Source: Candidatus Coatesbacteria bacterium
GTDB taxonomy: Bacteria; RBG-13-66-14
Assembly: GCA_014728225.1 (NCBI GenBank)
Contig: WJLX01000177.1
Coordinates: forward strand, 1 to 17,991
Length of the DNA stretch: 17,991 nt
Reading direction: 5' to 3'
Shown: positions 4,953-17,991 of the stretch, piece after piece
How positions within the stretch are numbered: the first letter of the stretch is position 1
How the letters are laid out: every line of letters starts with the position of its first letter
Notes under the pieces: generated by a model
What the model saw: the letters and a program-made list of their open reading frames with translations, nothing else
Databases searched by the model: none
What the model was told of the DNA's origin: nothing
Made by a program: the position numbers and the translations under genes

Positions 4953-5150
4953 GGCTTTTATGAGGGCGGGGTCAGTTCCAACGACCGCCCCGGCCGCCTC
5001 CCGAACCGCCGCGACAACCGCTGCCACAGCTTTGGCAGGCCCGCGGGTGGTTATGCTGCGCGGGCCGCCGGTTGTTCTCAAAGACTCGCCGGACGTCGCC
5101 TAGTGCGGCACCTTTTCGCTGTTCTGGCGGTTCTCCGGGGGTACCAGACC

Positions 5151-5294
5151 CTAGCTGTCGAAGAGGGTCGGCAGGGCCCGCTGCAGGGCCCGCTGGTGCC
5201 GGCGCTCGGCCTCGCTGACCTCGATGTCCAGGCTCTGAGCGGCGACGGGCGCTCCAAGGGCCGAGAGAACGAAGATCATTGACAGGCTGCGCAT
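5151..5294 (-). CDS. 47-aa ORF with a Sec-type signal peptide (MRSLSMIFVLSALGAPVAAQS...); below the ORF-track size cutoff
   Basis: Hand translation of the minus strand gives MRSLSMIFVLSALGAPVAAQSLDIEVSEAERRHQRALQRALPTLFDS*. It uses GC-rich codons and is followed by the terminator-like hairpin. No obvious SD. Confidence 0.3.
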   Translation of the reverse strand: MRSLSMIFVLSALGAPVAAQSLDIEVSEAERRHQRALQRALPTLFDS

Positions 5295-5399
5295 GGCGCA
5301 GCTCGTTGTTGGCTTGAGCGAGATCAGCAGCGTGATATGGTGTATATTACCAGTAAGTTGCTGGGAAATTGCGTGGGCTTATGAAAGGGAATCGGCTGG

Positions 5400-6330
5400 C
5401 AGCGGTTCAGTTTTTCTTTCGTTTATTATTTCTCGCAGCTTTCCTAGCATTTATAAAAAGCATTTTATTTTTATCATACTCACTTTTTAGCCATTCAATA
5501 AACGCATCATTATATACTGGACATGGATAGTGTTTAGATATATAGCAGTAAGGTGAATTAATATCTATGTTATAGTATTGTTTTACATATTGTATATCCT
5601 GTTGAGAGATCTGTTGACCTTTATTTATATATTTATTCATTTCCTCTACAACATATCCCATTCTTCGACAATGTGTTTTATCAGATTTTTCTGCTCTAAA
5701 TTCTGGAGCATTTGGATCATTTGTTATTCGAATTGTATCAGATAATTTTGTAACACTAATACTATCATGTGCTTCTGCAGGAGTGTCCATAAATATTTGT
5801 ATTTTATCAAAAAAATCATGCATATGTTCGTCAATTCTTTCGTTAATAAGATTTCTTATGTCGTTAGAATTTGCGATTTCAGATTTTGAACCATGTCGTA
5901 CATATATAGTTCCTTTTCTAAATTCATGCTTAACTTTTTTGTCAGATTTATATTCACCATCCTTTTCAAATAATAATGGGTACTTACTTTTACTGATGTG
6001 TATAGCATTAATAATTCCATCTTTTCTTTCAATGTTTACGTGATCAATGCAGTCATATTGAGTGCCAGTATACTTATATATTTTATCAACAAGAGGGGCT
6101 AAATCAATTTTATAATCTTCATAGTTGCATATCTTTCCGTTATCATCAATATTAAATAACAATACTCCACCGTCTGTATTTGCAAATGCAACGATTTCTT
6201 TTATCAATTTTAATAATAATCGCTTGTTCTTAAGGTTGTAGTGTTCCTTAAACTCAATATACTTCGTTTCTATTGTTGTGGTTCTTGAAACTCTAAGCAA
6301 TTCTGTTTTATCCATTTCTTTTCCTTTTAT
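5400..6330. mobile_element. about 0.93-kb AT-rich compositional island (single-gene insertion); no integrase or obvious flanking direct repeats seen
   Basis: An abrupt GC-to-AT switch sits exactly at the stop codon of the upstream gene (6327). The AT-rich tract ends at the island gene's stop (5407). Confidence 0.5.
5407..6315 (-). CDS. AlbA_2 / Schlafen-box (divergent-AAA) domain protein, AT-rich xenogeneic gene
   Basis: The ORF-track frame 5407..6801 is chimeric. The real start is the ATG at 6315 (MDKTELLRVS...), preceded by AAAGGAAAAG. The N-terminal ETKYIEFKEHYN...IKEIVAFANTDGGVLLFNIDDNGKI is the signature E-x-EFK...AFANT-GG-LL-G(V/I)-D of Pfam AlbA_2/Slfn core. Composition is about 30% GC against about 68% in flanking genes. 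Confidence 0.75.
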   Translation of the reverse strand: MDKTELLRVSRTTTIETKYIEFKEHYNLKNKRLLLKLIKEIVAFANTDGGVLLFNIDDNGKICNYEDYKIDLAPLVDKIYKYTGTQYDCIDHVNIERKDGIINAIHISKSKYPLLFEKDGEYKSDKKVKHEFRKGTIYVRHGSKSEIANSNDIRNLINERIDEHMHDFFDKIQIFMDTPAEAHDSISVTKLSDTIRITNDPNAPEFRAEKSDKTHCRRMGYVVEEMNKYINKGQQISQQDIQYVKQYYNIDINSPYCYISKHYPCPVYNDAFIEWLKSEYDKNKMLFINARKAARNNKRKKN

Positions 6331-6824
6331 CGCTTTGTCGCCAGCCTGCCCCCGGGGCAGGTCTCGCGGTAGGCGCATCTGGGGCAGAAGGTGGGGAAGA
6401 AGATCGTCGTGTGCAGCAGCAGCAGGCCGACGTAGAGCGCAGCGTACCACCAGGCCGCCGTGAACAACCAGTACAGCGGGAACAGCAGGATGGCCACGAC
6501 GAAGGAGATACCGAACGCCGCCGCCCGGTCGTAGGCCTTCTTCGTGTGCGCGGCATGGGGATGAAGCAGTTTGGAGAGCGGATTGGCCAGGTAGACGCCG
6601 TAGATCGCCGGGCAGAAGCGCCCCCGGTAGGGGCAGCCGACACAGCAGCGCGCCTGGGCGACATGGACGCCCAGGAGCAGCGAGAGGTAGATGACGCCCA
6701 GCCACCAGGAGCTGGCGAAGAGCAGCCAGGCGGCGCCGATCAGCGCCGCCAGCGCCGGGAGCAGCAGCAGAACGTAGTACAGCTTCTGCCGGGCGGTCCA
6801 CTGATGGGGTGGGTGGGAGGACAT
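6327..6824 (-). CDS. multi-pass membrane protein with two CxxC-type cysteine clusters (possibly DUF2085-like)
   Basis: 165 aa with 4-5 hydrophobic helices. Cysteine clusters CCVGCPYRGRFCPAIYG and FCPRCAYRETCPGG. GC-rich codon usage. Its stop is 11 nt before the AT-rich gene's start. Confidence 0.65.
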   Translation of the reverse strand: MSSHPPHQWTARQKLYYVLLLLPALAALIGAAWLLFASSWWLGVIYLSLLLGVHVAQARCCVGCPYRGRFCPAIYGVYLANPLSKLLHPHAAHTKKAYDRAAAFGISFVVAILLFPLYWLFTAAWWYAALYVGLLLLHTTIFFPTFCPRCAYRETCPGGRLATKR

Positions 6825-7053
6825 GACGGGCTTGTGGCCGAGCTGTCGGGGACGGTCGCCCCTGCGTTATACGACTGGAGTTAGTCGATCCTGCGGCAAG
6901 AACTGATCTTCAGCCGCCATACGGGAGAAAGCCGACTTGAACGGGCCGCACCCCTCAAAGCGTAATCGGGCGGTGGACGTCAATGAAGATGGATCGTCCA
7001 TGTAAAGCGCACTTCTCAGCATCAGTCGGGCGGGAACTCTGTACTCAGCCCGA

Positions 7054-7527
7054 CTAAACCGCGCCCCGCAGCAGATGGCAGATGGCCGCCGCCAGGGCGT
7101 CGGAGGCGTCGTCCGGTGTAACCGGCTCCCGCAGGGCCAGCAGGCGCTGGACCATGAAGGCCACCTGGCTTTTGACGGCCTTGCCCTTGCCGGTGACGGC
7201 GCGCTTGATCTGCATCGGGGTGTACTCGTGGACGGGCAGCCCGGCGCGCACGGCGGTCAATACGCAGACGCCGCGGGCGTGGCCCAGCAGCAGGGCGGTG
7301 CGGGGGTTGACGGCGCTGAAGACGGTTTCGACGGCGCAGCAGTCGGGGCGGTAGGTGTCGATGACGGCGGTCAGCTCGGTGTAGATGCGCTCGAGGCGGC
7401 GGGGCAGCTCCCAAGCGGGTTTGGTGGGGATGTGACCGTAGAGCAGGCCGCGCAGGCCGCGGCCCTGCTCTTCGACCAGGCCGTAGCCGGTGCTGGCGAG
7501 GGAGGGGTCGATGCCCAGGACACGGAT
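7054..7527 (-). CDS. ruvC: crossover junction endodeoxyribonuclease RuvC; no canonical start codon, putative AUC start
   Basis: Hand translation gives (I)RVLGIDPSLASTGYGLVEEQGRGL...ETVF...TPDDASDALAAAICH with all RuvC catalytic acidic residues. It is in frame with the yebC TAA and has no intervening ATG/GTG/TTG. A GGGAGA SD sits 6 nt before ATC (7525-7527). The ORF track captured only the last 68 aa from an internal TTG. Confidence 0.8.
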   Translation of the reverse strand: MRVLGIDPSLASTGYGLVEEQGRGLRGLLYGHIPTKPAWELPRRLERIYTELTAVIDTYRPDCCAVETVFSAVNPRTALLLGHARGVCVLTAVRAGLPVHEYTPMQIKRAVTGKGKAVKSQVAFMVQRLLALREPVTPDDASDALAAAICHLLRGAV

Positions 7528-8339: not shown

Positions 8340-9713
8340 TTAGCGCTCGACGTCGCCGGTGTCAACAGCGGACGGCCGGGACGGCGGCCCATCGAGGAGC
8401 CGGCGACGCAGGGCGGGTTCCAGGACGGCGGCGGTGGTCGGACCGCGGGGACGCCCCAGAAGCAGCCCCTCGAGCAGGGCGGCGGCGGCGCTGGATGCGG
8501 TGGTCAGCTCCGGGCCGGGGCGGACGTGCAGACCGCCGAGGAGCAGCCAGGCGTTCTCGACGGGGCCCCAGGCGGCCTCGTCGGCTTCGAGCCGACGGCG
8601 CAATCCGTACCCGCCGCTACCGACAACGACGATGGTCAGGCCGGGCAGCCGTTCGCGCAACTCGGTCAGCCAGGAGTCGAGCGCCTCGAGCAGGTTCTCG
8701 TAGAGCTCGCCATAAGCCGTGGCCCGGGTCAGGGCCGTCTCATCGAGGTAGACCGGATGGGGGAAGCGCTCGTGGTAGCGCAGCTCGCGGTATCGTTGCA
8801 GGGCCGGCCACCAGCGCCGGGCGAACTCGGCCAACAACCCGGAGTCGACGACGACGGCGTCGGTCCCGGCGGCCAGCAGCCGGGCGGCCGCGTTGAGCCG
8901 CTGTTCCAATTCGTCGGCGGCCCGGCGCACCGCCGCCGAGGTGTTCAACAACGGCGGTCGGGGCAACTCGACGACGGGCGGCTGAGCTTTCAGCAACGTC
9001 GGTTGGGTCGAGGTCCGCCGGCTGAGGGCAGCCAGCCCGGTGGTATTCAAGGGGGCGGCCGTTTCCGGAACGTCGAGACGGATCAGGCAGCCGTGATCGC
9101 CCAGTTCGGCAAAGCCGTTAAGGCGACCTTCGGCCCACAGGCGCTCGAGATGGGTCAGCGCCAGACCATCCAGCCGCAGGATCAGCAGCCGCAGCGGCGG
9201 CGGCTCGACGGGCTCCACGTCGCGCAGGCGCAGCCCTTCGAGACGCAGCGAGCAGCCCCGCGCCAGGACGGTGTTGGCGGCCTCCTCGAGCAGGGCCGCC
9301 AGCCGCGGCCTCAAAGGGCCGTAGAGTTCGAGAGCGCTCAGACGACGAGCCATCCGGCCGAGCAGGGGCGGCAGGATGTACTCGGGCAGGTGGTCGAGCC
9401 CCGGACCCAACCGGGCGCGATCGGCGGCCAGGCGTTTGGGATCCAGCGTGCGAACCGCTCTGAGGCTCACCTGCACTGCGCTGCCCCGACGATCGCGCAG
9501 CGTTAGCTCCAGCCGCACCTCGCGCCGCCGGGCGATGACCTCGACGGACCGGCCGGGGAGGTCGAGGCGGCTTTCGGCGGCGATGCTCCAGCCGCCGTCG
9601 CCTTCATCGACCAGCAGCAGCTCGTCCGCCCGCGGCGTCATCGCCAGGGCCAGGTAGAGGACGATACCGGTCAGCAGACCGAGGCCGAGGACACCTGTGA
9701 TCCGCTCACGCAT
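8340..9713 (-). CDS. membrane-anchored hypothetical protein (N-terminal TM, large extracytoplasmic region); function unknown
   Basis: 457-aa ORF with protein-like composition. N-terminal helix LGLGLLTGIVLYLALA. The opposite-strand ORF is Gly/Gln/Pro low-complexity. Confidence 0.55.
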   Translation of the reverse strand: MRERITGVLGLGLLTGIVLYLALAMTPRADELLLVDEGDGGWSIAAESRLDLPGRSVEVIARRREVRLELTLRDRRGSAVQVSLRAVRTLDPKRLAADRARLGPGLDHLPEYILPPLLGRMARRLSALELYGPLRPRLAALLEEAANTVLARGCSLRLEGLRLRDVEPVEPPPLRLLILRLDGLALTHLERLWAEGRLNGFAELGDHGCLIRLDVPETAAPLNTTGLAALSRRTSTQPTLLKAQPPVVELPRPPLLNTSAAVRRAADELEQRLNAAARLLAAGTDAVVVDSGLLAEFARRWWPALQRYRELRYHERFPHPVYLDETALTRATAYGELYENLLEALDSWLTELRERLPGLTIVVVGSGGYGLRRRLEADEAAWGPVENAWLLLGGLHVRPGPELTTASSAAAALLEGLLLGRPRGPTTAAVLEPALRRRLLDGPPSRPSAVDTGDVER

Positions 9714-9829: not shown

Positions 9830-9851
9830 GGGACGCCTCGAGGCGTCCCGG
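9830..9851. terminator. perfect 22-nt GC palindrome (cgggacgcctc|gaggcgtcccg) in the gap after the SPFH gene; possible non-canonical terminator or REP-like element
   Basis: Seen in sequence. Flanked by tttgtgtgt on one side; there is no strong U-tract on the minus strand. Confidence 0.35.
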
Positions 9852-9885: not shown

Positions 9886-10944
9886 TCAGTCGCCGTTCTT
9901 GCCGCTGGTCAACTCGGCGAAGGCTCCCAGGGAGCCCAGGGTCTTGACGGTGTCGAAAGGCAGGAAGACGGTGTTGGAGCCCTCGCGGGCGTTGTCCTGC
10001 ACCGCCTTGATGTAGCCCCGGGTCAGCAGGTAGGTCGAGGTGTGCTCGCCCAGCTTTGCCTGGATGCCGGCCACGGCGGCGGCCTCGGCGGCGGCCTCCA
10101 GCTCGCGGGCCTTGGCCAGCCCCTCGGCGCGGAGGATCTCCGCCGCGCGGTTGCCCTCGGCGTGGGTGATGGCGGCCTGCTTGGCGCCTTCGGCCTTGGT
10201 GATGCTGGCCTGCTTGGAGCCCTCGGCCTCCTTGATCATCGCCCGGCGCTTGCGCTCGGCGGTGACCTCGGCGCGCATGGCCTCGAGGAAGTCGGCCGGC
10301 GGAGAGACGTCTTGCAGCTCGACGCGGTTGACCTTAACGCCCCACTTGTCGGTGGCCTCGTCGAGGATGTCGCGCAAGCGGGCGTTGAGGGAATCGCGGC
10401 TGTCGAAGGTTTCGTCGAGCTCCAGGGCGCCGATGGCCGTGCGCAGGCTGGTCTGGGTCAGCCGCTCGATGGCCAGGGGAACGTTCTCGATCTCGTAGAC
10501 GGCGCGGCGCGGATCGGTGATCTGGTAGTAGAGCACGGCGTCGACGGTCAGTACCAGGTTGTCCTTGGTGATCACCTGCTGGGCGGGGAAGTCCAGCAAC
10601 TGCTCGCGCAGGTCGATGACGTCGGTCCAGTAGTACTGGCCCCCCACGGAACCGCGCCCGCTGCCGTCGACGACCCTGGCCCCGTGGGGCTTGTCGGCGC
10701 CCGCCACCTGGGGGCGGCTGTCGGGTTTTGTTTTGTCGAAGGTGACCGAGGTGGTGTCGATGACCCGCAAGGGCTTGTCGAAGAAGGGCAGCACCATGTG
10801 CAGGCCGCTGTCCAGGACCCGATGGAACTTGCCCAGGCGCTCGATGACCATCACGTGGGCCTGGGGAACCTGGCGGAAGCCCTTGAGGGCGATGATCAGG
10901 ATCAGGATGAAGGCCACGCCGAGAACGATGTAGAGACCCAGCAT
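9886..10944 (-). CDS. SPFH/band-7 (stomatin/HflC-like) membrane protein
   Basis: N-terminal TM; VIERLGKFHRVLDSGLH...DLREQLLDFPAQQVITKDNLVLTVDAVLYYQITDP...WGVKVNRVELQDVSPP...AERKRRA; C-terminal AEG-repeat coiled coil. Confidence 0.9.
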   Translation of the reverse strand: MLGLYIVLGVAFILILIIALKGFRQVPQAHVMVIERLGKFHRVLDSGLHMVLPFFDKPLRVIDTTSVTFDKTKPDSRPQVAGADKPHGARVVDGSGRGSVGGQYYWTDVIDLREQLLDFPAQQVITKDNLVLTVDAVLYYQITDPRRAVYEIENVPLAIERLTQTSLRTAIGALELDETFDSRDSLNARLRDILDEATDKWGVKVNRVELQDVSPPADFLEAMRAEVTAERKRRAMIKEAEGSKQASITKAEGAKQAAITHAEGNRAAEILRAEGLAKARELEAAAEAAAVAGIQAKLGEHTSTYLLTRGYIKAVQDNAREGSNTVFLPFDTVKTLGSLGAFAELTSGKNGD

Positions 10945-10977
10945 TGTTGCTCCTTTCTGGTCGGTGGTCGGGGTCGG

Positions 10978-11877
10978 CTAGAAGTTGAACTCCTCGTCGC
11001 CGATGATGATGCGGATGGTGCGGAAGGCGATGCCCTTGGAATCCATCTCCAGGACTATCTCTCCGTCAACCCCTTGTTGAGCCAGCTCGTAGAAGCGGTC
11101 CCGCTGGACCTCATCGTCACAGAAGTCACCGCCGATAACGATAGACTTGTCCAGGGCTTCCCAACCGACATACTGGTTTGTTCCCTTGAAGGTGAACTGA
11201 TACTCACCGTACCTCCACGCCGTTCCCATCATCATGATCGGATCTCCGGCCGTGTAAGTCAGACGCCCGGGAACACGGATGGTCTGATTGGCATAGGGTT
11301 CGGAATCAGCAGCGAAAGCCGATGCTGAAACCAGAGTACCTCGACGGTCCCATTCACGGTCGATGGCCGCCAGCAGCTTGTCAACCCGGCGAACAGCGTC
11401 GGTGTCGTCGTAGGTCGAGCCGATGCTGCTCAGCTCGGTTTCCGTCTTTTCCAGCTCTTCGTCCTCGGCGCTCTTGAGACCCTCGGCGAAGCCCTCGAAG
11501 GGAGCCAGAGCCCGCAGGCAACGCTCCTCGCGGATTGCGGAGTAGGTCGAGGCGGCTTCTTCGTTGAAGGCCTCATCGGGGTAATCGGCAACCAGTCGGG
11601 CGTAGAGACCGTCGGCCCGCTCCAGGGCCGCATCGTCGGCCTCGCCGACGCCGTCGGCGGAAACGACCAGCCGGGCGCTGCAGAGCCGGCCGACGGGGGT
11701 GGTCTCGAGTTCCTCCAGCTCAGCGCTTACTGCGTCCAGTTTGGCGCGGACCTCGTCGCGCTGCGTGGTCAGGGCGGCGATCTCGTCGTTGAGTTCGATC
11801 TCGCGCTCGCTGGGGCCGCAGCCGGCCAGCAGCGTCGACAACAGGATGCAGGCGGCCAGTAGCAGTCGTCTGTTCAT
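10978..11877 (-). CDS. lipoprotein: N-terminal coiled coil plus C-terminal beta-rich domain, function unknown
   Basis: Signal peptide with lipobox LLAGC. Its start overlaps the stop of the upstream small lipoprotein gene (ATGA). Confidence 0.6.
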   Translation of the reverse strand: MNRRLLLAACILLSTLLAGCGPSEREIELNDEIAALTTQRDEVRAKLDAVSAELEELETTPVGRLCSARLVVSADGVGEADDAALERADGLYARLVADYPDEAFNEEAASTYSAIREERCLRALAPFEGFAEGLKSAEDEELEKTETELSSIGSTYDDTDAVRRVDKLLAAIDREWDRRGTLVSASAFAADSEPYANQTIRVPGRLTYTAGDPIMMMGTAWRYGEYQFTFKGTNQYVGWEALDKSIVIGGDFCDDEVQRDRFYELAQQGVDGEIVLEMDSKGIAFRTIRIIIGDEEFNF

Positions 11878-12089
11878 TGTTCTTCTCCCTCCTCAAGTTG
11901 CTGGATCTCCGGAAAGGAACGCAGTTCGGCGAGCTTGAGGCCGGCCTCGTCCAGCTCCTCCTCGAGCCGGACAATCTCCTCCTTGAGTTCAGCGCGCTCT
12001 TCCTCAAGATCCGCTATCAGTTCCTCGTCCTCACAAGCTGCGAACAAGCCTGTGCTCGCCAGTAACAGTGTCAGCGGTACGTACCTCAT
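11874..12089 (-). CDS. small lipoprotein (71 aa) with an acidic coiled coil
   Basis: Signal peptide MRYVPLTLLLASTGLFAAC (lipobox). AAGGAGG SD 4 nt upstream. Its N-region is paralogous to that of the next lipoprotein. Confidence 0.5.
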   Translation of the reverse strand: MRYVPLTLLLASTGLFAACEDEELIADLEEERAELKEEIVRLEEELDEAGLKLAELRSFPEIQQLEEGEEQ

Positions 12090-12168
12090 CCATCCTCCTT
12101 TTCACTTGGGTTGCGGTGGATACGAGTTCAACACCCCGCCCCGACAGGACGGGTCGTAGGGGTCGCGC

Positions 12169-14193
12169 TCAGTGAACCAGCGGCGCGGGTTCGGCCAGGC
12201 GCTGGACCTCGGCGGCGGTGATGACGATCCCGCGCTCCCGGTAGGTCTCGAGGTCGAAGTAGTAGGGTTCGAGCAGGCGGTCGAGGAGGCCCCGGGCCCC
12301 GCGGGCGCCCAGCCCCTTGGCGCGGGCCAGGGCGGCCAGGGCGGTCAGGGCCGCGGCGGTGAACTCCAGCTCGACCTCCCGCGAGGCCATCAGCGCCTGA
12401 TGCTGCTTGACCAGGGCGTTTTTCGGCTCGGCGATGACCCGGGCCAGGTCGGTGTCGGTGAGCTCGCCCAGCTCGCAGACGACGGGGAAGCGGCCGACGA
12501 ACTCGGGCAGCAGGCCGAACTCGATCAGGTGGGCCGGGCGCAGGGCGGGCGTGGCGGGTTCTTCCGTGGAAGCGCCGAAGCCCAGGCGGCTGGTGCGTTG
12601 TTCGCGACGACGCAGCTCGTCGAGTCCGCAGAAGGCCCCGCCGCAGATGAACAGCACGTGGCGGGTGTCCAGCGTGGCGAACTTGCGGTGGTAGAACAGG
12701 CTGCCGCTCTCGGGGAACCTGGCCTCCGCGCCCTCGACCAGGGTCAGCAGGGCCTGCTGGACGCCTAGTCCGCCGACGTCGCGGCGCCGCTTGTCCGCCG
12801 AGGCGGCCAGCTTGTCGATCTCGTCGATGTAGATGATGCCGTAGCGCGCCGTCTCGAGATCGCGTCCCGCGGCGGCGTAGAGGTCGTAGAGCAGGTCCTC
12901 GACACTGCGGCCGACGTAACCGGTCTCGGTCAGCGAGGTGGCCTCGCTGATCACCAGGGGGCTCTTGAGCAGCCGGGCCAGACTCTTGACCAAATGTGTC
13001 TTGCCGCAGCCCGTCGGGCCGACGAGGAGGATGTTGGACTTCTCCAGCTCGGTTTCGCCCCGGTAGCGGATGCGGCGCAGGTGGTTGGCCACGGCGACGC
13101 TGACGGCGCGCTTGGCGGCCTCCTGGCCGATGACATGCTGCTCGAGGTGGGCGTAGATCTCCCGGGGGCTGAGTTCGCAGTCCAACTCGGCTTTGACCTG
13201 TTTCCCCTTGCCGTCTCCGCTGTTCTCATCGTCCCCGTTCTCCTCGCGGCAATCCGTTTTGAAGCGTTGGTGGATCTGTTCGAGGGCGTTGCGGTAAGTA
13301 CGCCAGTCCTTGTTGTGCAGATGCTTGGCGGCTTGCCGCAGGTTGTGGTTGAGCTTCATCTGGGCCATGGCGAAGGGCCGCTTGCGCTGCGCCTCGCCGA
13401 AGGCGCAGACCTCGTCATAGGCCTTGTCGCACTGCTCCAGCTCACGCAGCTCGATTTTCAGGCTTGCGCAGTAGCGCTCGATGATGTTGCACAGCCCGGT
13501 CTCGTCGAAGTCGACGTTCTCCGTGCCCAGTTCCAGCAGCTCGGCCAGCCGGTGACGGTACTCGCGACCACCCTTGCTCTGCAGCTTTTCGTGGATCCCC
13601 CGGCAGCGTTCCTCGAGCTTGTGCAGCTTGCGGTAGCGGCGGGCCGGGCGGCGGGAGCGCGTGGTCATCAGCTTGTCCAGGCGCCGGGCGGCCAGGCGGC
13701 TCGTCAACCCCCGACCGCCGACGAGGAGGACGCCCAGCAAGGCCCAGCCGCCGGTGACTAACAGGCTCAAGCTCAGAGCCAACCCGCCGGAGAGGGCGAC
13801 CTCGGCGCCCCACAGCCAGAGGTCGACGCGGACCAGGGCGGCGCCGGGCACCAGCTCCAGCAGGACCAGCAGACCGACAGCGAGGGTCGTCGTCACGGCG
13901 ACGGCCAGCCCCAGATCGGGCCGGACGAGGGCCTCGAGACACCCGGGACGGGGCTGGTACTGCAGGTGTTCGCCGACGACGGCGGGCCGGGCCGCCCGCT
14001 TGAGCTGGCCCGGGAAGCCGAGCTGGAAGGCCCTCAAGCCGCCGTAGATGAGCAGCGCCGTCGGCGGGGTCAGCAGGGCCGCCGCCCAGAGAGCCGCCGC
14101 GGCCGTTCCCAGCCGAAACAGCAACACGCCGACGACGGGGGCCAGCAGGACGGCCAGAACCAGTCCGGCCAGCTTGATCGCCCGGTTGATCAT
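12169..14193 (-). CDS. membrane-anchored ClpX-family AAA+ unfoldase paralog (4-5 N-terminal TM helices replace the zinc-binding domain)
   Basis: The C-terminal ~330 aa align motif-for-motif with ClpX: IYAHLEQHVIGQEAAKRAVSVAV, Walker A GPTGCGKT, pore-1 TETGYVG, Walker B IIYIDEIDK, GVQQALLTLVEG, LFICGGAF, the IGF-loop equivalent RLGFGAS, arginine finger PEFVGRFPV, sensor-II GARGARGL. The N-terminus MINRAIKLAGLVLAVLLAPVVGVLLF... forms several hydrophobic helices. The real start ATG at 14193 overlaps the upstream stop (ATGA). The ORF-track 808-aa frame includes a spurious Arg/Pro-rich extension. Confidence 0.85.
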   Translation of the reverse strand: MINRAIKLAGLVLAVLLAPVVGVLLFRLGTAAAALWAAALLTPPTALLIYGGLRAFQLGFPGQLKRAARPAVVGEHLQYQPRPGCLEALVRPDLGLAVAVTTTLAVGLLVLLELVPGAALVRVDLWLWGAEVALSGGLALSLSLLVTGGWALLGVLLVGGRGLTSRLAARRLDKLMTTRSRRPARRYRKLHKLEERCRGIHEKLQSKGGREYRHRLAELLELGTENVDFDETGLCNIIERYCASLKIELRELEQCDKAYDEVCAFGEAQRKRPFAMAQMKLNHNLRQAAKHLHNKDWRTYRNALEQIHQRFKTDCREENGDDENSGDGKGKQVKAELDCELSPREIYAHLEQHVIGQEAAKRAVSVAVANHLRRIRYRGETELEKSNILLVGPTGCGKTHLVKSLARLLKSPLVISEATSLTETGYVGRSVEDLLYDLYAAAGRDLETARYGIIYIDEIDKLAASADKRRRDVGGLGVQQALLTLVEGAEARFPESGSLFYHRKFATLDTRHVLFICGGAFCGLDELRRREQRTSRLGFGASTEEPATPALRPAHLIEFGLLPEFVGRFPVVCELGELTDTDLARVIAEPKNALVKQHQALMASREVELEFTAAALTALAALARAKGLGARGARGLLDRLLEPYYFDLETYRERGIVITAAEVQRLAEPAPLVH

Positions 14194-14675
14194 CGTATCC
14201 CTCCCTCGAGCAGTTTCTCCCGGATCTCCTCGAGCACGATCACGGCCTCGGTACGGCGCCGGGGCAGGCTCTCGAGCACCACGGCGGGCAGTTTGATGTA
14301 GTCGAGGTCGGGGCGGCAGATCAGGCGGACGGTCAGGTTGGGGTGTTCGTCGATGAAGCGGCGCGCCATGGGAGTGCTGATGTTCCAAGCGATGGGGAAG
14401 GTGTTCTTGTCGTCGAAGCGCAGGCGCAGCAGCCGGTCTTCGGCGAAGGGCACGTAGGCGCAGAGGACGACGGGACGGTTGTTCAGGCGGTACTCGTAGG
14501 AACGGGCATGCTCGGGACCGTAGTTGTAGACCTCGACGGCGGCGGTCTCGAGGTCCCGGGGATCGTTGAACCAGCGGGCGGGATCGACCATGCACCAGGG
14601 CCCGCCCCGGTCGGCCCGGACGACGAACAGGCGGGTCAGCAGCTTCTCGGCCTGGAGTTTGATCCGGTGTTTCAT
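14190..14675 (-). CDS. hypothetical soluble protein (161 aa), translationally coupled to the ClpX-like gene
   Basis: ATG at 14675 with an AAGGAGG SD 7 nt upstream (MKHRIKLQAEKLL...). No recognisable domain. Its stop overlaps the ClpX-like start. Confidence 0.6.
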   Translation of the reverse strand: MKHRIKLQAEKLLTRLFVVRADRGGPWCMVDPARWFNDPRDLETAAVEVYNYGPEHARSYEYRLNNRPVVLCAYVPFAEDRLLRLRFDDKNTFPIAWNISTPMARRFIDEHPNLTVRLICRPDLDYIKLPAVVLESLPRRRTEAVIVLEEIREKLLEGGIR

Positions 14676-14752
14676 TGATTGCCTCCTTGAAGCGCTTGGC
14701 AATGGTGGGAGATTGGCTGAGGGCGGTGTCGCTCAGGCGGGATGTCGGCGTT

Positions 14753-16030
14753 CTATCGCAGCCGCACGCAGTCGCCGAGGGGCGGGGTCTCGGTGTTGCC
14801 GTCGGCGGTCAGGCACCACAGCACGGGTAGGCCGTCGTACCCCTCGGGCCAGGGGGCGTAGCCGTCTGTCAGTACGACGTTGTACCGGCCCCAGTGGGAG
14901 TTCTCGCTCACCCAGTCGAAGGCGTTCTGGAAGTCCGTTCCGCCCCAACCCAGTATTCGCAGCCCCATCCAGTCGCCCCGCCGGTAGTGGTGGATGTACT
15001 CGCCGTTGATGCGCTCGACCATGTGGTCGAAGATCAGCAGGCGGATGCGCAGCAGGTGGGAGATGGCCTCCAACTCGGAGAAGAACTGCTGCAGGTGGGT
15101 AGGCTTGATGCTGCCGGAGACATCAACCATGACCAGGATGTCGGCCTTGGCGTGACGGCTGTGCCCCTTGACGCCGAAGACGGGCCGGCGACGGTTGGGC
15201 CGGGCGTAGGTCGGACGGCTACCGCCCAGATAACGGCCGATCAGGTTGCGCAGCCGCTGACGCCAGTCGATCAACGGCACGTCCAGGGCCTCGAGCAGGC
15301 GGGGCAGGTCGCTGGGGCCTTTTCCACCGGATTGCGAGTAGGCGCTCTTGAGTACCCGGCGCAGGATGATCCGGTAACTCTCCTCGTCGGGAGCATCCAT
15401 CCAGGCGCCGTGGTCCATAAGACGCTCCAGCAGGGCCTGGGGGTCGCCCTCGAACCATAGGGGGATGGTGCCGCGATCCGTGTGCAGATGCAGCTTCTCG
15501 CCTCGCAGCATGGCCTCCAGGCTCCGGGCCAGCTCCTCGTAGCTCATCCGCGGCAGCCAGCGGACCAACTGCTCCAGCGCTGTGCGGCAGGAGAGCTCCT
15601 CGGGCAGGAAGACGCTGGCCTTTTCCAGAAACTCGTCACCGGCGATACCCTCGAGGTGGGGACAGCTTTTGTGGCCGTGGATGACGGCGTCCATGGCCCA
15701 ATTGAGGGCGGGGTGGTTGCGGCAGGCTTCCTTGCCGAACTGCCTGGCGCGCAGGGGGTGCAGGTGCAGGATGTGCTCCAGCTCGTGGCGTAGGATGGTC
15801 TGAGTCTGACCAACGCTCAGCCTGTCGACGAACTTCGGGTTGTAGGCCAGCACGGGACGGCCGTCGCGGTCGATCCAGACCGCCATGGTCTTGACCCGCT
15901 TCTCCCGGGGGCCGACGGTGGTGAAGTAGTTGATCAGATAGCCGTAGAAGGGCGTTTCGTTGATCAGGCGGCAACGGGCCAGGTTGATCTTCTCCAGGGC
16001 ACTCAAGCGGGTCTCAGTCGACGAGGACAC
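14753..16030 (-). CDS. putative metallopeptidase (HExxH) plus VWA-like domain protein (DUF2201-type MoxR partner)
   Basis: HELEH zinc-binding motif (ILRHELEHILHLHP) in the N-domain. VWA MIDAS DxSxS (ILVMVDVSGSI) in the C-domain. The start is ambiguous: GTG 16030 (overlaps the ATPase gene by 17 nt), TTG 16006, or the ORF-track TTG 16063. Confidence 0.8.
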   Translation of the reverse strand: MSSSTETRLSALEKINLARCRLINETPFYGYLINYFTTVGPREKRVKTMAVWIDRDGRPVLAYNPKFVDRLSVGQTQTILRHELEHILHLHPLRARQFGKEACRNHPALNWAMDAVIHGHKSCPHLEGIAGDEFLEKASVFLPEELSCRTALEQLVRWLPRMSYEELARSLEAMLRGEKLHLHTDRGTIPLWFEGDPQALLERLMDHGAWMDAPDEESYRIILRRVLKSAYSQSGGKGPSDLPRLLEALDVPLIDWRQRLRNLIGRYLGGSRPTYARPNRRRPVFGVKGHSRHAKADILVMVDVSGSIKPTHLQQFFSELEAISHLLRIRLLIFDHMVERINGEYIHHYRRGDWMGLRILGWGGTDFQNAFDWVSENSHWGRYNVVLTDGYAPWPEGYDGLPVLWCLTADGNTETPPLGDCVRLR

Positions 16031-17390
16031 CCTCCACCTCCCCGTGGCTGTGTTCGCTCTCAACGGGACGGGCGGTGCCCCTGGTCAGCTCGCCGAAGGC
16101 CGTGCAGAGATCGGTGCGTGGGGCCATCAACTGCAGCCAGGCGTCGGGGTCGTTCTTCTCCGGGGCCACCACCTCGAGGACCTGCTTCAGCGCCGCCGGT
16201 CCACCGAGAACAGCCACGCTGTAGCCCTCGCAGATGTCGAGTTCCCGGGCCCCCACCCGGGCGATCACCCGGGCCAGTCCCAGGACCAGGTCCCAGTTGG
16301 CGTTGTCGGCCTGGGGACCGAGAAGCAGGTCCAGCAGGTCCAGCACGTTGTGGCGGCGTCCGGGATGCTTGATCTCCTCGATCTTGCCCAGCAGGCTCCA
16401 AACGAGCTGGCGTACACCGTTGCGGCTGAGGTCCAACACGTCGTTCTTCCAGTACTCGCGGTCGTTGTCCAGGATCAGCGCCAGAGAGATCAGCGGTTCG
16501 GTGTTGAGGAAATCGTCCACCAGGGGCAGGCCGATCAGGCCGCCCAGAACGCGGCGATGGGCCTCCTCGCCGTAGATCCCCAGCCTTCGGGACGCGGTGT
16601 TGACCCGCCCGACGGCTTCCCAGCTCCGCGGCGAGGGGTAGACCTTGACCCCTTTATCGACGGGCTGGGCCTTCTCGTCCTTGGCGTCCAGTTGCAGCGG
16701 CCGGCCGAGGAACATCGAGCCCAGATCGCGCTCGGAAGTGTAGGTCAGGATCTTGCCGATCTCGTCACCGTCGAGCTTCGGCAACCGCCCCATGAAGGCG
16801 GCCCATTCGATCATGTACTCATCGTCGACCTCGACCTCGAGGAAGCAGAAGCGGTCGAGGAAGGCGGAGTCCAGCAGGGCGTTCTGGGAGTAGGCCGAGC
16901 TGCGTGGCGGGTTGCTGGCCGCCACCACGTCCCAGCCCGCCGGCAGGCGATAGCGACCGCAGCGGTGGTAGACGGCGCCATCTGTGTCGCGCTGATGCTC
17001 GATGAGTTGGAAGACGGCCTGCTGGACGTCGAACTGGGCGCGGAACAACTCGTCGAGGAACAGCAGCCCCCGCTCGCCGTGGACCTTCTCCTGGGGCAGG
17101 ATCGTCGGCGGGGCGAAATTGGTCAGCTTGCCGTCGGCGGCGTCATCCAGGTAGGGCAGGCCGGTGAAGTCGGCGGCTTCATGGAGCGAGCCGCGCAGGT
17201 TGATGTAGTCCGTCGGGGCCTCGTCGCCCCACAGCTCGCGCCGCAGGCGGGCGAACTCGCTGGATTTTTCGTAGCACAGGGCGCGGACCAGGGCGCTCTT
17301 GCCGATCCCGCGCTCGCCGACGAGCAGCGGGGTAACATCGGCGGCCAGGCTGAGGGTCAGCTCCTGGGCGATCTGCAGTAAACCGGGCAT
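16014..17390 (-). CDS. MoxR-like AAA+ ATPase (AAA_5 type) with a long C-terminal extension
   Basis: Walker A LLVGERGIGKSAL, Walker B LLFLDELFRA, sensor-1 VVAASNP. ATG at 17390 with an AAGGAGG SD 4 nt upstream. It is the first gene of the cluster. Confidence 0.85.
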   Translation of the reverse strand: MPGLLQIAQELTLSLAADVTPLLVGERGIGKSALVRALCYEKSSEFARLRRELWGDEAPTDYINLRGSLHEAADFTGLPYLDDAADGKLTNFAPPTILPQEKVHGERGLLFLDELFRAQFDVQQAVFQLIEHQRDTDGAVYHRCGRYRLPAGWDVVAASNPPRSSAYSQNALLDSAFLDRFCFLEVEVDDEYMIEWAAFMGRLPKLDGDEIGKILTYTSERDLGSMFLGRPLQLDAKDEKAQPVDKGVKVYPSPRSWEAVGRVNTASRRLGIYGEEAHRRVLGGLIGLPLVDDFLNTEPLISLALILDNDREYWKNDVLDLSRNGVRQLVWSLLGKIEEIKHPGRRHNVLDLLDLLLGPQADNANWDLVLGLARVIARVGARELDICEGYSVAVLGGPAALKQVLEVVAPEKNDPDAWLQLMAPRTDLCTAFGELTRGTARPVESEHSHGEVEGVLVD

Positions 17391-17433
17391 CGGGCCTCCT
17401 TTTGTAGTATTTCACAGTTAAATAATAACATGA

Positions 17434-17462
17434 CCCCCTGACAGATCCGGTCTATCAGGGGG
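17434..17462. promoter_or_regulatory. 29-nt near-perfect palindrome ccccctgacagatccggtctatcaggggg, 45-70 nt upstream of the MoxR start, followed on the minus strand by an AT-rich tract; candidate operator (or terminator/attenuator hairpin)
   Basis: Seen in sequence (one mismatched pair). The AT-rich ttattatttaactgtgaaatactac between it and the SD could hold the promoter -10. Confidence 0.4.
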
Positions 17463-17787
17463 CCAAGACTGGTAAGGGAGGAGCTCGAGTGCAGTTAAGC
17501 GCTCTTCACCACCGGGCTGCCGGGGGGATGGTGTTCACCGGTGGACCGCTCTCTCCCCCGTCGACAGAATACTAACGCGGGGGTACGACATCCGGGGTCG
17601 GGGCGGTAACACTTTTTTCCATCCGTCAGCCGCCGCCCCAACACTCAGCAGGTCAAGCAGATGCGGGCTGAAAAACCGCCTTCTCTTCTTGGGGATACCT
17701 TAACGCTCATGGGTCGTCATATGTGTGATTGTCTTGTCTTCACGAAAGTTAACGGGATGCCGTCATGTCACGAGCAATGGAGGCGCT

Positions 17788-17991
17788 GTGGCCGCCGGCT
17801 CAAAGGGTAATCCCGACAGGCATGTCACGTGTGCAAAGTGCAACTATCGCTATCACTACAGGTTAGGCGACGGGCGGCGGATGTGCAAGCGCCGTAGAAA
17901 ACGCTTTAACTATAAACCGGCTCGCCGTGGGCTTTCAGCAGAACAGCGTGAGTTGATCGCCGCGCTGTTTTGGCTTGAAGCAACCGCGGCC
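17788..17991 (+). CDS. partial ORF (runs off the window end) with an N-terminal Cys-rich basic zinc-ribbon-like segment, reminiscent of IS transposase (InsA/IS1595/ISL3-type) N-termini
   Basis: GTG with a GGAGG SD. Translation ...VTCAKCNYRYHYRLGDGRRMCKRRRKRFNYKPARRGLSAEQRELIAALFWLEATAA... has no stop before 17991. Family assignment not secure. Confidence 0.25.
   Translation, partial: MAAGSKGNPDRHVTCAKCNYRYHYRLGDGRRMCKRRRKRFNYKPARRGLSAEQRELIAALFWLEATAA

Follow-up and report, generated by a model that had tools for sequence, protein, structure and literature searches.

The window analysed here is the entire 17,991-bp contig WJLX01000177.1 of a Candidatus Coatesbacteria metagenome-assembled genome. 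On its minus strand, at 9886-17390, it carries seven co-directional open reading frames (ORFs), g1 to g7, encoding a MoxR-like ATPase, a zincin-like metallopeptidase with a VWA domain, an orphan protein, a ClpX-type unfoldase with transmembrane (TM) helices of its own, two lipoproteins and an SPFH protein. Built from known parts, the cluster seems to encode a membrane-bound machine of a kind not described before, which would remodel or degrade proteins. We read it, with a probability of roughly 0.45, as a membrane-tethered, FtsH-like ClpX(P) machine that works together with a MoxR-VWA-zincin module and a cage of stomatin type. The N-terminal module that the unfoldase shares with membrane-bound J-domain proteins is the strongest single clue that a remodelling activity is brought to the membrane. 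An earlier inspection of the letters of this DNA, the sequence-only reading, had placed seven minus-strand genes here, and all seven ORFs are present as it gave them.

A ClpX-type motor with a membrane module of its own

The product of g4 (12169-14193; 674 amino acids, aa; this and all cluster coordinates below refer to the minus strand) begins with a membrane module (13699-14193) in which four TM helices are predicted at about aa 2-28, 33-59, 94-114 and 137-165. It is followed by a predicted cytoplasmic helical spacer (aa 183-320; 13234-13647) modelled by AlphaFold2 with a predicted local distance difference test score (pLDDT) of 60-88, a disordered charged linker (aa 320-340, pLDDT below 50) and a ClpX-type AAA+ module (aa 341-674; 12169-13173). 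The four hydrophobic segments lie within residues 1-165, with hydropathy peaks of 2.1-2.8, and the membrane module, which also holds a small hairpin (aa 68-81) and a conserved LWxWGAE loop, is conserved across the lineages described below. As the charge distribution fits an N-in/C-in topology, the AAA+ ring would lie in the cytoplasm.

The AAA+ module is recognised by its NCBIfam and PDB matches. Residues 334-667 align to ClpX positions 53-403 in NCBIfam, solved ClpX structures in the PDB are matched at E 5e-82, the identity to canonical ClpX is 43-50% and Pfam returns AAA_2 and ClpB_D2-small. The NCBIfam scores, 356.2 bits against NF003745 (cutoff 359) and 319.2 bits against TIGR00382 (cutoff 370.75), fall below the equivalog cutoffs, and ClpX is by far the best family, HslU reaching 203 bits. 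The ClpX match and the four hydrophobic segments bear out the suggestion that an unfoldase of ClpX type carries its own TM domain; the other domain calls made for the cluster, AAA_5, PF13203 with PF09967, and Band_7, were likewise matched.

Three motifs can be placed directly in the ClpX alignment, namely the Walker A sequence GPTGCGKT (12997-13020), the pore-1 loop GYVG (12910-12921) and the ClpP-docking tripeptide LGF (12577-12585), which stands as SRLGFGA opposite the E. coli GIGFGA. GPTGCGKT, IIYIDEIDK, GYVG, RDVGG and GARGAR are invariant or conservatively kept, also in the relative P0147, and the Walker A and B motifs, GYVG, the arginine finger, sensor II and [I/L]GF are intact in all lineages, down to 35% identity. 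The docking tripeptide is LGF in the window and in P0002, P0006 and P0147, and IGF in P0003-5. The RKH loop GGRKHP, on the other hand, is replaced in the membrane-anchored proteins by SGSLFY-H, NGNLRF-H or NGDRMGMG, and the zinc finger PF06689, which all canonical ClpX matches carry, has no match in g4 or in the six membrane-anchored ClpX proteins (6/6), a single Cys of g4 aligning to the zinc-finger region.

The N-terminal module is shared with membrane J-domain proteins

When 1.84 billion cluster representatives were searched exhaustively by HMMER with a profile of the N-terminal module, only membrane-anchored ClpX proteins and three J-domain membrane proteins of 400-420 aa (P0148-P0150) were returned. 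All three match the module of g4 over their N-terminal 320 residues and end in a DnaJ J-domain (Pfam E 4e-11 to 1e-6) that contains the HPD motif. Comparing the module of g4 with that of the J-proteins in hhalign gave a probability of 99.0% and an E value of 2e-18 over 303 aligned columns, the helical spacer of g4 aligning with the helical region of the J-domain relatives. Judged by these profile alignments, the homology between the ClpX anchor and the membrane J-proteins is new and well supported. As one membrane module is found either on a ClpX motor or on an Hsp70 recruiter, it points to protein remodelling at the membrane.

E. coli DjlA is a membrane-anchored J-domain protein, and P0148-P0150 resemble it in having an N-terminal membrane anchor, a linker and a C-terminal J-domain, an arrangement in which a chaperone is recruited to the membrane. 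They differ from it in the N-terminal module, which consists of four TM helices and a long helical domain and gives no Pfam match of the DjlA/TerB type. The g4 protein has a ClpX motor where these relatives have the J-domain.

A scan of metagenome contigs with the module profile (A3) found no relatives, and none were found on viral contigs in the scan or on plasmids by tblastn. The two neighbourhoods of J-protein genes (L015, L016) are short contigs in which one adjacent VWA gene is the only informative neighbour. In L016 (1434-3029) this VWA-domain gene begins 13 nucleotides (nt) downstream of the J-protein gene, and we regard it as an echo of the VWA link of the cluster.

A rare family with a conserved four-gene core

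Searching 5.8 billion proteins with g4 returned six full-length relatives, two of them close (99% and 88%) and four at 47-48% identity, one of the four being named Coatesbacteria; all other matches are canonical ClpX proteins of about 420 aa and cover the C-terminal half only. The HMMER search with the N-terminal module added one further membrane-anchored ClpX, P0147 (701 aa, E 1e-7), and just two GTDB species genomes carry the module. In the 5.8 and 1.84 billion proteins searched, membrane-anchored ClpX is confined to three lineages, all metagenomic, two of which are named Candidatus Coatesbacteria. We define the lineages by their neighbourhoods: lineage A comprises the window, L005/L006 and L003, lineage B comprises L001, L002, L007 and L009, and lineage C is L014. 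Identities are given relative to the window proteins, those of lineage A being taken from L003.

In lineage A all seven genes are kept with local synteny (g1 86%, g2 83%, g3 88%, g4 88%, g5 85%, g6 65% and g7 94%). Lineage B has g1 (64%), g2 (61%), g3 (44%) and g4 (48%) and is devoid of g5-g7, the g4 gene being followed by non-coding DNA and then by a LarA gene on the opposite strand. Lineage C has g1 (46-66%), g2 (48%), two copies of g3 (29-34%), g4 (35%) and g7 (66%), and between its membrane-anchored ClpX and SPFH genes lie genes for four small proteins, including a lipoprotein, a TM protein and a TM zinc-ribbon protein; the lipoprotein at the position of g6 is a different one, with the lipobox LIGC. 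The MoxR, DUF2201, orphan and membrane-anchored ClpX genes are present in all three lineages (3/3), each time between unrelated flanks, which makes this four-gene core the unit that is conserved. Since lineage B is without g5-g7, SPFH is not obligatory in cis, and the gene distribution suggests that the SPFH link is either ancestral or recurrent and can be lost from the locus. The expectation that the cluster is conserved as a unit holds for the four-gene core, and for the SPFH gene in two of the three lineages; it does not hold for g5 and g6, which were found in close relatives only. The orphan g3, the N-terminal module of g4 and g6 diverge much faster than g1 and g7.

Lineage C has further peculiarities. 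Its g1 (L014:5723-7121) is split into two overlapping ORFs, one (257 aa) matching the N-terminal and the other (260 aa) the C-terminal half of g1, which is either an assembly-error frameshift or a pseudogene. Its g3 is tandemly duplicated (L014:8816-9947; 34% and 29% identity to that of the window), and a gene for a 97-aa protein of no known family separates g2 from the g3 copies.

The MoxR-VWA pair and the orphan protein

The first gene, g1 (16014-17390; 458 aa), encodes a MoxR-like AAA+ ATPase that matches Pfam AAA_5 (E 1.9e-8, 34.9 bits, cutoff 22) and has conserved Walker A (GERGIGKS, aa 25-32) and Walker B (LLFLDE, aa 109-114) motifs, followed by a C-terminal domain of about 270 aa with no family match. 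It matches phrog_1297 'ATPase' at E 8e-32, stays below the cutoff of bpMoxR PF20030 (17 bits, cutoff 27) and found no solved relative in the PDB by sequence or by profile. The second, g2 (14753-16030; 425 aa, GTG start), encodes a zincin-like metallopeptidase joined to a VWA domain, with matches to DUF2201_N (PF13203; E 2e-18, 67.5 bits, cutoff 23.2) and DUF2201 (PF09967; E 8e-16, 58.7 bits, cutoff 26.4). Its HExxH motif reads HELEH (aa 82-86) and its metal ion-dependent adhesion site (MIDAS) is complete, with DVSGS at aa 303-307, T365 and D389, these residues and the HExxH motif being invariant in orthologues and in remote DUF2201 proteins; PDB searches by sequence or profile gave no meaningful match. 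With an intact Walker A/B ATPase adjoining a MIDAS-bearing VWA protein, g1 and g2 constitute a MoxR-VWA pair. The g2 clade linked to membrane-anchored ClpX is 46-61% identical, followed by a sharp drop to at most 32% for other DUF2201 proteins. Both g1 and g2 match phage protein families (PHROG). We considered a prophage origin of the cluster and rejected it, the phage homologues of g2 and g4 being distant (25-48%) and devoid of the N-terminal module.

The third gene of the core, g3 (14190-14675), encodes a soluble protein of 161 aa and its stop codon overlaps the g4 start (ATGA). Orthologues are found in all three lineages (3/3), always directly upstream of the membrane-anchored ClpX gene. 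No relative was found in Pfam, NCBIfam, PHROG, PADLOC or the PDB; searching all family members against Pfam at E values up to 5 returned nothing, PDB searches by sequence and profile gave two weak matches only, both to de novo designed Ig proteins, and scanning metagenome contigs with the g3 profile (A1) gave no relatives. An AlphaFold2 model built from two sequences has a pLDDT of 35, too low to be of use.

The SPFH protein and the lipoproteins

The last gene, g7 (9886-10944; 352 aa), encodes a protein with an N-terminal TM helix and a Band_7 domain (Pfam E 1e-43, 149 bits). Among solved structures E. coli QmcA (8z5g) matches best, at E 2e-64 in two segments; archaeal and human stomatins come next (PH stomatin 2e-37), and HflK is matched at E 2e-13. 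The scores against the HflK/HflC equivalogs are below cutoff, with 101 bits for TIGR01933 (cutoff 159) and 34 for TIGR01932 (cutoff 134). As the closest solved relative is QmcA and HflK is far weaker, g7 is of the QmcA/stomatin type and not of the HflK/C type, and the analogy to HflK/C with FtsH that the sequence-only reading had drawn needs correcting in this respect. Compared with E. coli QmcA, g7 carries an insertion of 47 aa (aa 63-109) at about QmcA residue 59, which is also found in the lineage C orthologue (L014:13651-14619). SPFH proteins of the QmcA/stomatin type are predicted to face the cytoplasm (PMC10434171).

The two lipoproteins suspected earlier do carry lipobox-like signals. 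The putative lipoprotein g5 (11874-12089; 71 aa) has the sequence LFAAC and an acidic coiled coil, its gene is preceded by the Shine-Dalgarno sequence AAGGAGG, and it is conserved at 85% in L003 only. The lipoprotein g6 (10978-11877; 299 aa) has the lipobox LLAGC and an N-terminal coiled coil, with weak matches below cutoff to Lpp/alanine-zipper coiled coils. Neither has a Pfam family. The g6 protein is 65% identical to that of L003 (9083-9946), compared with 84-94% for the other cluster genes, and no g6 orthologue was found in lineages B or C; by this divergence and its lipobox g6 is a fast-evolving and presumably periplasm-exposed component.

Operon layout and a conserved upstream palindrome

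The spacing from g1 to g7 is -17, 77, -4, 79, -4 and 33 nt, so that g1 and g2 overlap by 17 nt, start and stop codons also overlapping at g3/g4 and g5/g6. A Shine-Dalgarno site of the GGAGG/AGGAG type precedes each of the seven starts (7/7), and a scan found no promoter-like site inside the cluster. Start/stop overlaps, Shine-Dalgarno sites and a single conserved palindrome upstream argue for one operon, and the layout of tight gaps and overlapping ends that had been read from the letters stands. The third-position GC content is 0.88-0.94 in g1-g4 and g7, and 0.65-0.76 in the lipoprotein genes g5 and g6.

The palindrome (17431-17465) lies about 40 nt upstream of the g1 start and forms a hairpin with a 15-bp stem, 8 GC pairs and a T-rich tail. 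It is unique within the window. Its core, CCCCTGnnAGAnnnnnTCTGTCAGGGG, occurs once each, upstream of g1, in L001, L002, L005, L006 and L007/8, and the half-site TCTGTCAGGGGG is also present in L003. The core of the window thus recurs exactly, and at the same position, in lineage B. Since it is exact in a lineage whose proteins are only 44-64% identical, we take it not to be a chance occurrence but a selected regulatory site, and the palindrome pointed out previously is therefore real. Present in three sequence variants, it is either an operator or a leader-RNA hairpin. The palindrome is contained in a GC-rich 5' leader or promoter region of about 300 nt (17391-17700), which shows about 90% column identity among the window, L005, L006 and L003 and an RNA fold z-score of -2.45. 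The leader is conserved within each lineage, that of lineage B lying at L001:700-1011 and L002:3435-3746 and having a perfect TATAAT directly after the palindrome. The first 320 nt upstream of g1 are common to the window and the 99%-identical strain L006. Rfam gave no match for the window or the leader region.

Surroundings of the cluster

A GC-rich hairpin, GGGACGCC-TCGA-GGCGTCCC (9830-9849, minus strand), read from the sequence 37 nt past the g7 stop, is the probable 3' end of the operon; as it lacks a U-tract, a role as terminator is a tentative assignment. The next gene, g8 (8340-9713, minus strand), encodes a protein of 457 aa with one N-terminal TM helix and with no family match in Pfam, NCBIfam, PHROGs or PADLOC; its orthologue (86%) is found only in lineage A, downstream of the cluster. 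We considered g8 as an eighth member and rejected it, as it is separated by a gap of 172 nt and the hairpin after g7, lacks a Shine-Dalgarno site and is absent from lineages B and C. The products of g3, g4 and g7 are identical to database entries named 'hypothetical protein' (MBD3401180.1), 'AAA domain-containing protein' (MBD3401179.1) and 'SPFH/Band 7/PHB domain protein' (MBD3401176.1), respectively.

The flanks of the window are chromosomal, with genes for an epimerase, ruvA, an FKBP protein, a methyltransferase and yebC. Between the methyltransferase and yebC genes, at 5000-6800, lies an island of 35-43% GC, compared with about 66% elsewhere, which looks horizontally acquired and carries a gene with a Schlafen/AlbA_2 domain (ORF 5407-6801, minus strand). 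In the near-identical strain, the sole gene call in the stretch from yebC to the island (L005:10494-10700, corresponding to about 7000-7450 of the window) is a 68-aa RuvC-like fragment, and the window ORFs tested at about 7000-7450 have no Pfam match; from this fragment, ruvC may be truncated beside the island. An ORF on the plus strand that starts MCKRRRKRFNYKPARRGLSAEQRELIAALFWLE (17882-17991) diverges from the operon and runs off the contig end; its product may resemble the N-terminus of IS5-family (DUF4096-type) transposases. Elsewhere, a gene with GmrSD_N and SLFN_AlbA_2 domains lies about 1.2 kb upstream of the lineage B cluster in L002, and a WYL regulator neighbours the cluster of lineage C.

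Discussion

Based on these data we propose that g4 would assemble into a hexamer in which the four-helix anchor and the helical spacer of about 140 residues replace the zinc finger. Anchored in this way, the ring would take in substrates on the side turned to the membrane, and the [I/L]GF loops on its far face could dock a ClpP encoded elsewhere in the cell. The outcome would be an FtsH-like membrane protease made from Clp parts, acting on membrane or membrane-proximal clients, and because the RKH loop is replaced, the N-terminal module, and not a tag of the ssrA type, would decide which clients are taken. On the cytoplasmic face, the motor may be confined or gated by a cage or microdomain made of the SPFH protein g7. 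In an upstream step the MIDAS of the g2 VWA domain would capture a client or a component of a complex, g1 would remodel it and the zincin domain would cleave it. The orphan g3 could be an adaptor, an anti-adaptor or a regulated client, and g5 and g6 fast-evolving periplasmic partners. Our data establish what the domains are, that their motifs are conserved, that the gene order recurs and that the N-terminal module is homologous to that of membrane J-proteins; the orientation of the hexamer, the docking of ClpP, the caging by SPFH, the order of action and the physiological role, be it quality control or conflict, are inferred.

Known systems provide precedents for parts of this proposal. The FtsH-HflK/HflC complex likewise has a membrane-anchored hexameric AAA+ unfoldase whose entry face is expected next to the membrane, and a genetic link to a membrane scaffold of the SPFH family. 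The motor of the cluster differs in being of ClpX type with no fused protease domain, so that ClpP would have to be recruited through [I/L]GF; its SPFH protein is a single one of the QmcA/stomatin type, predicted to face the cytoplasm, whereas HflK and HflC are a periplasm-facing pair; and FtsH-HflK/C has no counterpart of the MoxR ATPase, the VWA-zincin protein or g3. No FtsH gene was found in the window. Canonical ClpXP shares with g4 the GYVG loop, the Walker motifs, sensor II and the docking loop of the IGF type, whereas g4 has no C4 zinc-binding domain, has its RKH loop replaced and has gained an N-terminal module of 340 residues with TM and helical parts; its gene adjoins neither clpP nor tig, and the protein scores just below the PRK05342 cutoff and clearly below that of TIGR00382. 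Stomatin/QmcA-NfeD operons, in which NfeD1b carries a protease domain of the ClpP class (PMC2636767), resemble the cluster in pairing a QmcA/stomatin-type SPFH protein with membrane proteins and in linking stomatin to Clp-type proteolysis. The cluster differs from them in that no NfeD match was found by Pfam in g5, g6, g8 or the L014 neighbours and in that its Clp-related partner is an unfoldase, not a protease of the ClpP fold. Together with HflK/C-FtsH, these operons (PMC2636767) support our reading as precedents.

Several points weigh against a ClpX(P) protease at the membrane. ClpP docking by g4 would depend on a motif of three residues, and no clpP gene was found in any of the clusters. 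The topology of g4 was derived from hydropathy, charge distribution and the AlphaFold2 helices, and AlphaFold2 gives the helices of the TM region at low confidence. The roles of g1, g2 and g3 are guesses. Generic AAA_5-DUF2201 pairs with no ClpX occur widely in bacteria and also on phage-like contigs, lineage B has the four-gene core with no SPFH or lipoprotein gene adjoining, and a family so extremely rare, with another genomic context in each lineage, resembles accessory or conflict genes more than genes of core proteostasis in its pattern.

This last point leads to a different physiological role, which we hold to be unlikely, namely that of a nucleoside triphosphate-dependent conflict system of the MoxR-vWA kind (anti-phage or abortive-infection), in which MoxR and the VWA-zincin protein would sense or license, the membrane-anchored ClpX, with or without ClpP, would be the effector and destroy proteins of the membrane or of an invader, and the SPFH protein and lipoproteins would restrain it until triggered. 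A conflict role was predicted for MoxR-vWA-FtsH ternary systems by Kaur, Burroughs, Iyer & Aravind (2020, eLife; PMC7159879), and these systems resemble the cluster in having a MoxR AAA+/vWA core together with a second classical-clade AAA+ in one operon and in their patchy distribution. Their third component has two FtsH-type AAA+ domains, the N-terminal one inactive, and no membrane-anchored ClpX, and their effectors are NEFF1, radical SAM, or Ubl/caspase proteins with effector-associated domains (EADs) (PMC7159879); in the cluster a single AAA+ module of ClpX type takes that place, VMAP, STAND and propeller domains were not found, the vWA is of DUF2201 type with an N-terminal zincin, g1 stays below the bpMoxR cutoff, and SPFH and lipoproteins are attached. 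These ternary systems, which the sequence-only reading did not take into account, are the closest analogue described; the exact composition of the cluster turned up nowhere in literature searches that covered DUF2201, membrane-anchored ClpX and the combination of SPFH with MoxR. In favour of a conflict role are the rarity, patchiness and apparent mobility of the cluster, with wholly different flanks in the three lineages, the rapid evolution of g3, the g4 module and g6, the phage family matches of g1 and g2, and the neighbouring Schlafen/AlbA_2 (window), GmrSD_N+SLFN_AlbA_2 (L002) and WYL (L014) genes. Against it, PADLOC-DB 2.0 gave no specific match, but generic AAA matches for the P-loop region of g4 (DolB, IetA, E ~1e-7), one weak match for g1 and nothing for g2, g3 and g5-g7; the searches brought up no nuclease, TIR, caspase or effector-associated domain; lineage A sits among the housekeeping genes polA, yebC and ruvA; the viral contigs and plasmids searched carry no relatives of the N-terminal module; and its J-domain relatives point to chaperone biology. 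The defence role entertained in the sequence-only reading has in this way received no direct support.

The J-domain relatives could also speak for an assembly or extraction chaperone that works independently of ClpP, as a J-domain is a chaperone recruiter and not a protease partner. MoxR-VWA and the membrane-anchored ClpX would then be remodelling ATPases that assemble or insert a specific envelope complex, made up of the lipoproteins and the SPFH cage, with no degradation, much as NorQ/NorD, CbbQ/CbbO and RavA/ViaA act on their clients. The characterised MoxR-VWA pairs are maturation or assembly chaperones, as Snider and Houry reportedly described in 2006 and as summarised in PMC7159879. This favours such an activity, as does the lack of clpP within the cluster. 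We nevertheless consider it quite unlikely, as [I/L]GF is kept in three of three lineages despite an overall identity of 35%, the intact HExxH of g2 argues for proteolysis somewhere in the pathway, and lineage B has no nearby lipoprotein or SPFH client. It is very improbable, finally, that the seven genes are not one system at all and that a MoxR-DUF2201 dyad, a pair of g3 with membrane-anchored ClpX and a lipoprotein-SPFH module are adjacent by chance. Dyads of the generic kind do stand alone, lineage B does lack g5-g7, and there could be room for internal promoters in the gaps of 77 and 79 nt; yet the clade of g1 and g2 that is linked to membrane-anchored ClpX is distinct from other DUF2201 proteins and adjoins g3 and the ClpX gene in every locus long enough to show neighbours, the SPFH gene recurs in the same order between the unrelated flanks of lineage C, and both the overlaps at g1/g2, g3/g4 and g5/g6 and the outcome of the promoter scan speak against separate units.

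To our knowledge, FtsH is credited with nearly all degradation of membrane proteins in bacteria, and ClpX is taken to be a soluble enzyme. A membrane-tethered ClpX(P) machine of the sort proposed here might, in a bolder formulation that we find doubtful, stand as a third kind of membrane-anchored AAA+ protease after FtsH and the archaeal LonB, one that is kept in the membrane by a dedicated module for sensing clients, recruits soluble ClpP, is caged by a cytoplasm-facing stomatin and is primed by a MoxR-VWA-zincin module, its N-terminal module being a portable 'membrane client receptor' for either ClpX or, through the J-domain, Hsp70. Should the cluster be a conflict system instead, it would add an unfoldase-based class of effector. 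The MoxR-DUF2201 dyad is common in bacteria and phages, and its operon context beside an unfoldase may help to reveal its role. With one membrane module carrying either a ClpX motor or a J-domain, client selection at the membrane becomes directly testable. If our proposal is true, the arrangement of a membrane AAA+ protease with an SPFH cage would have arisen more than once, and the contribution of SPFH cages to the work of unfoldases could be studied in a natural system.

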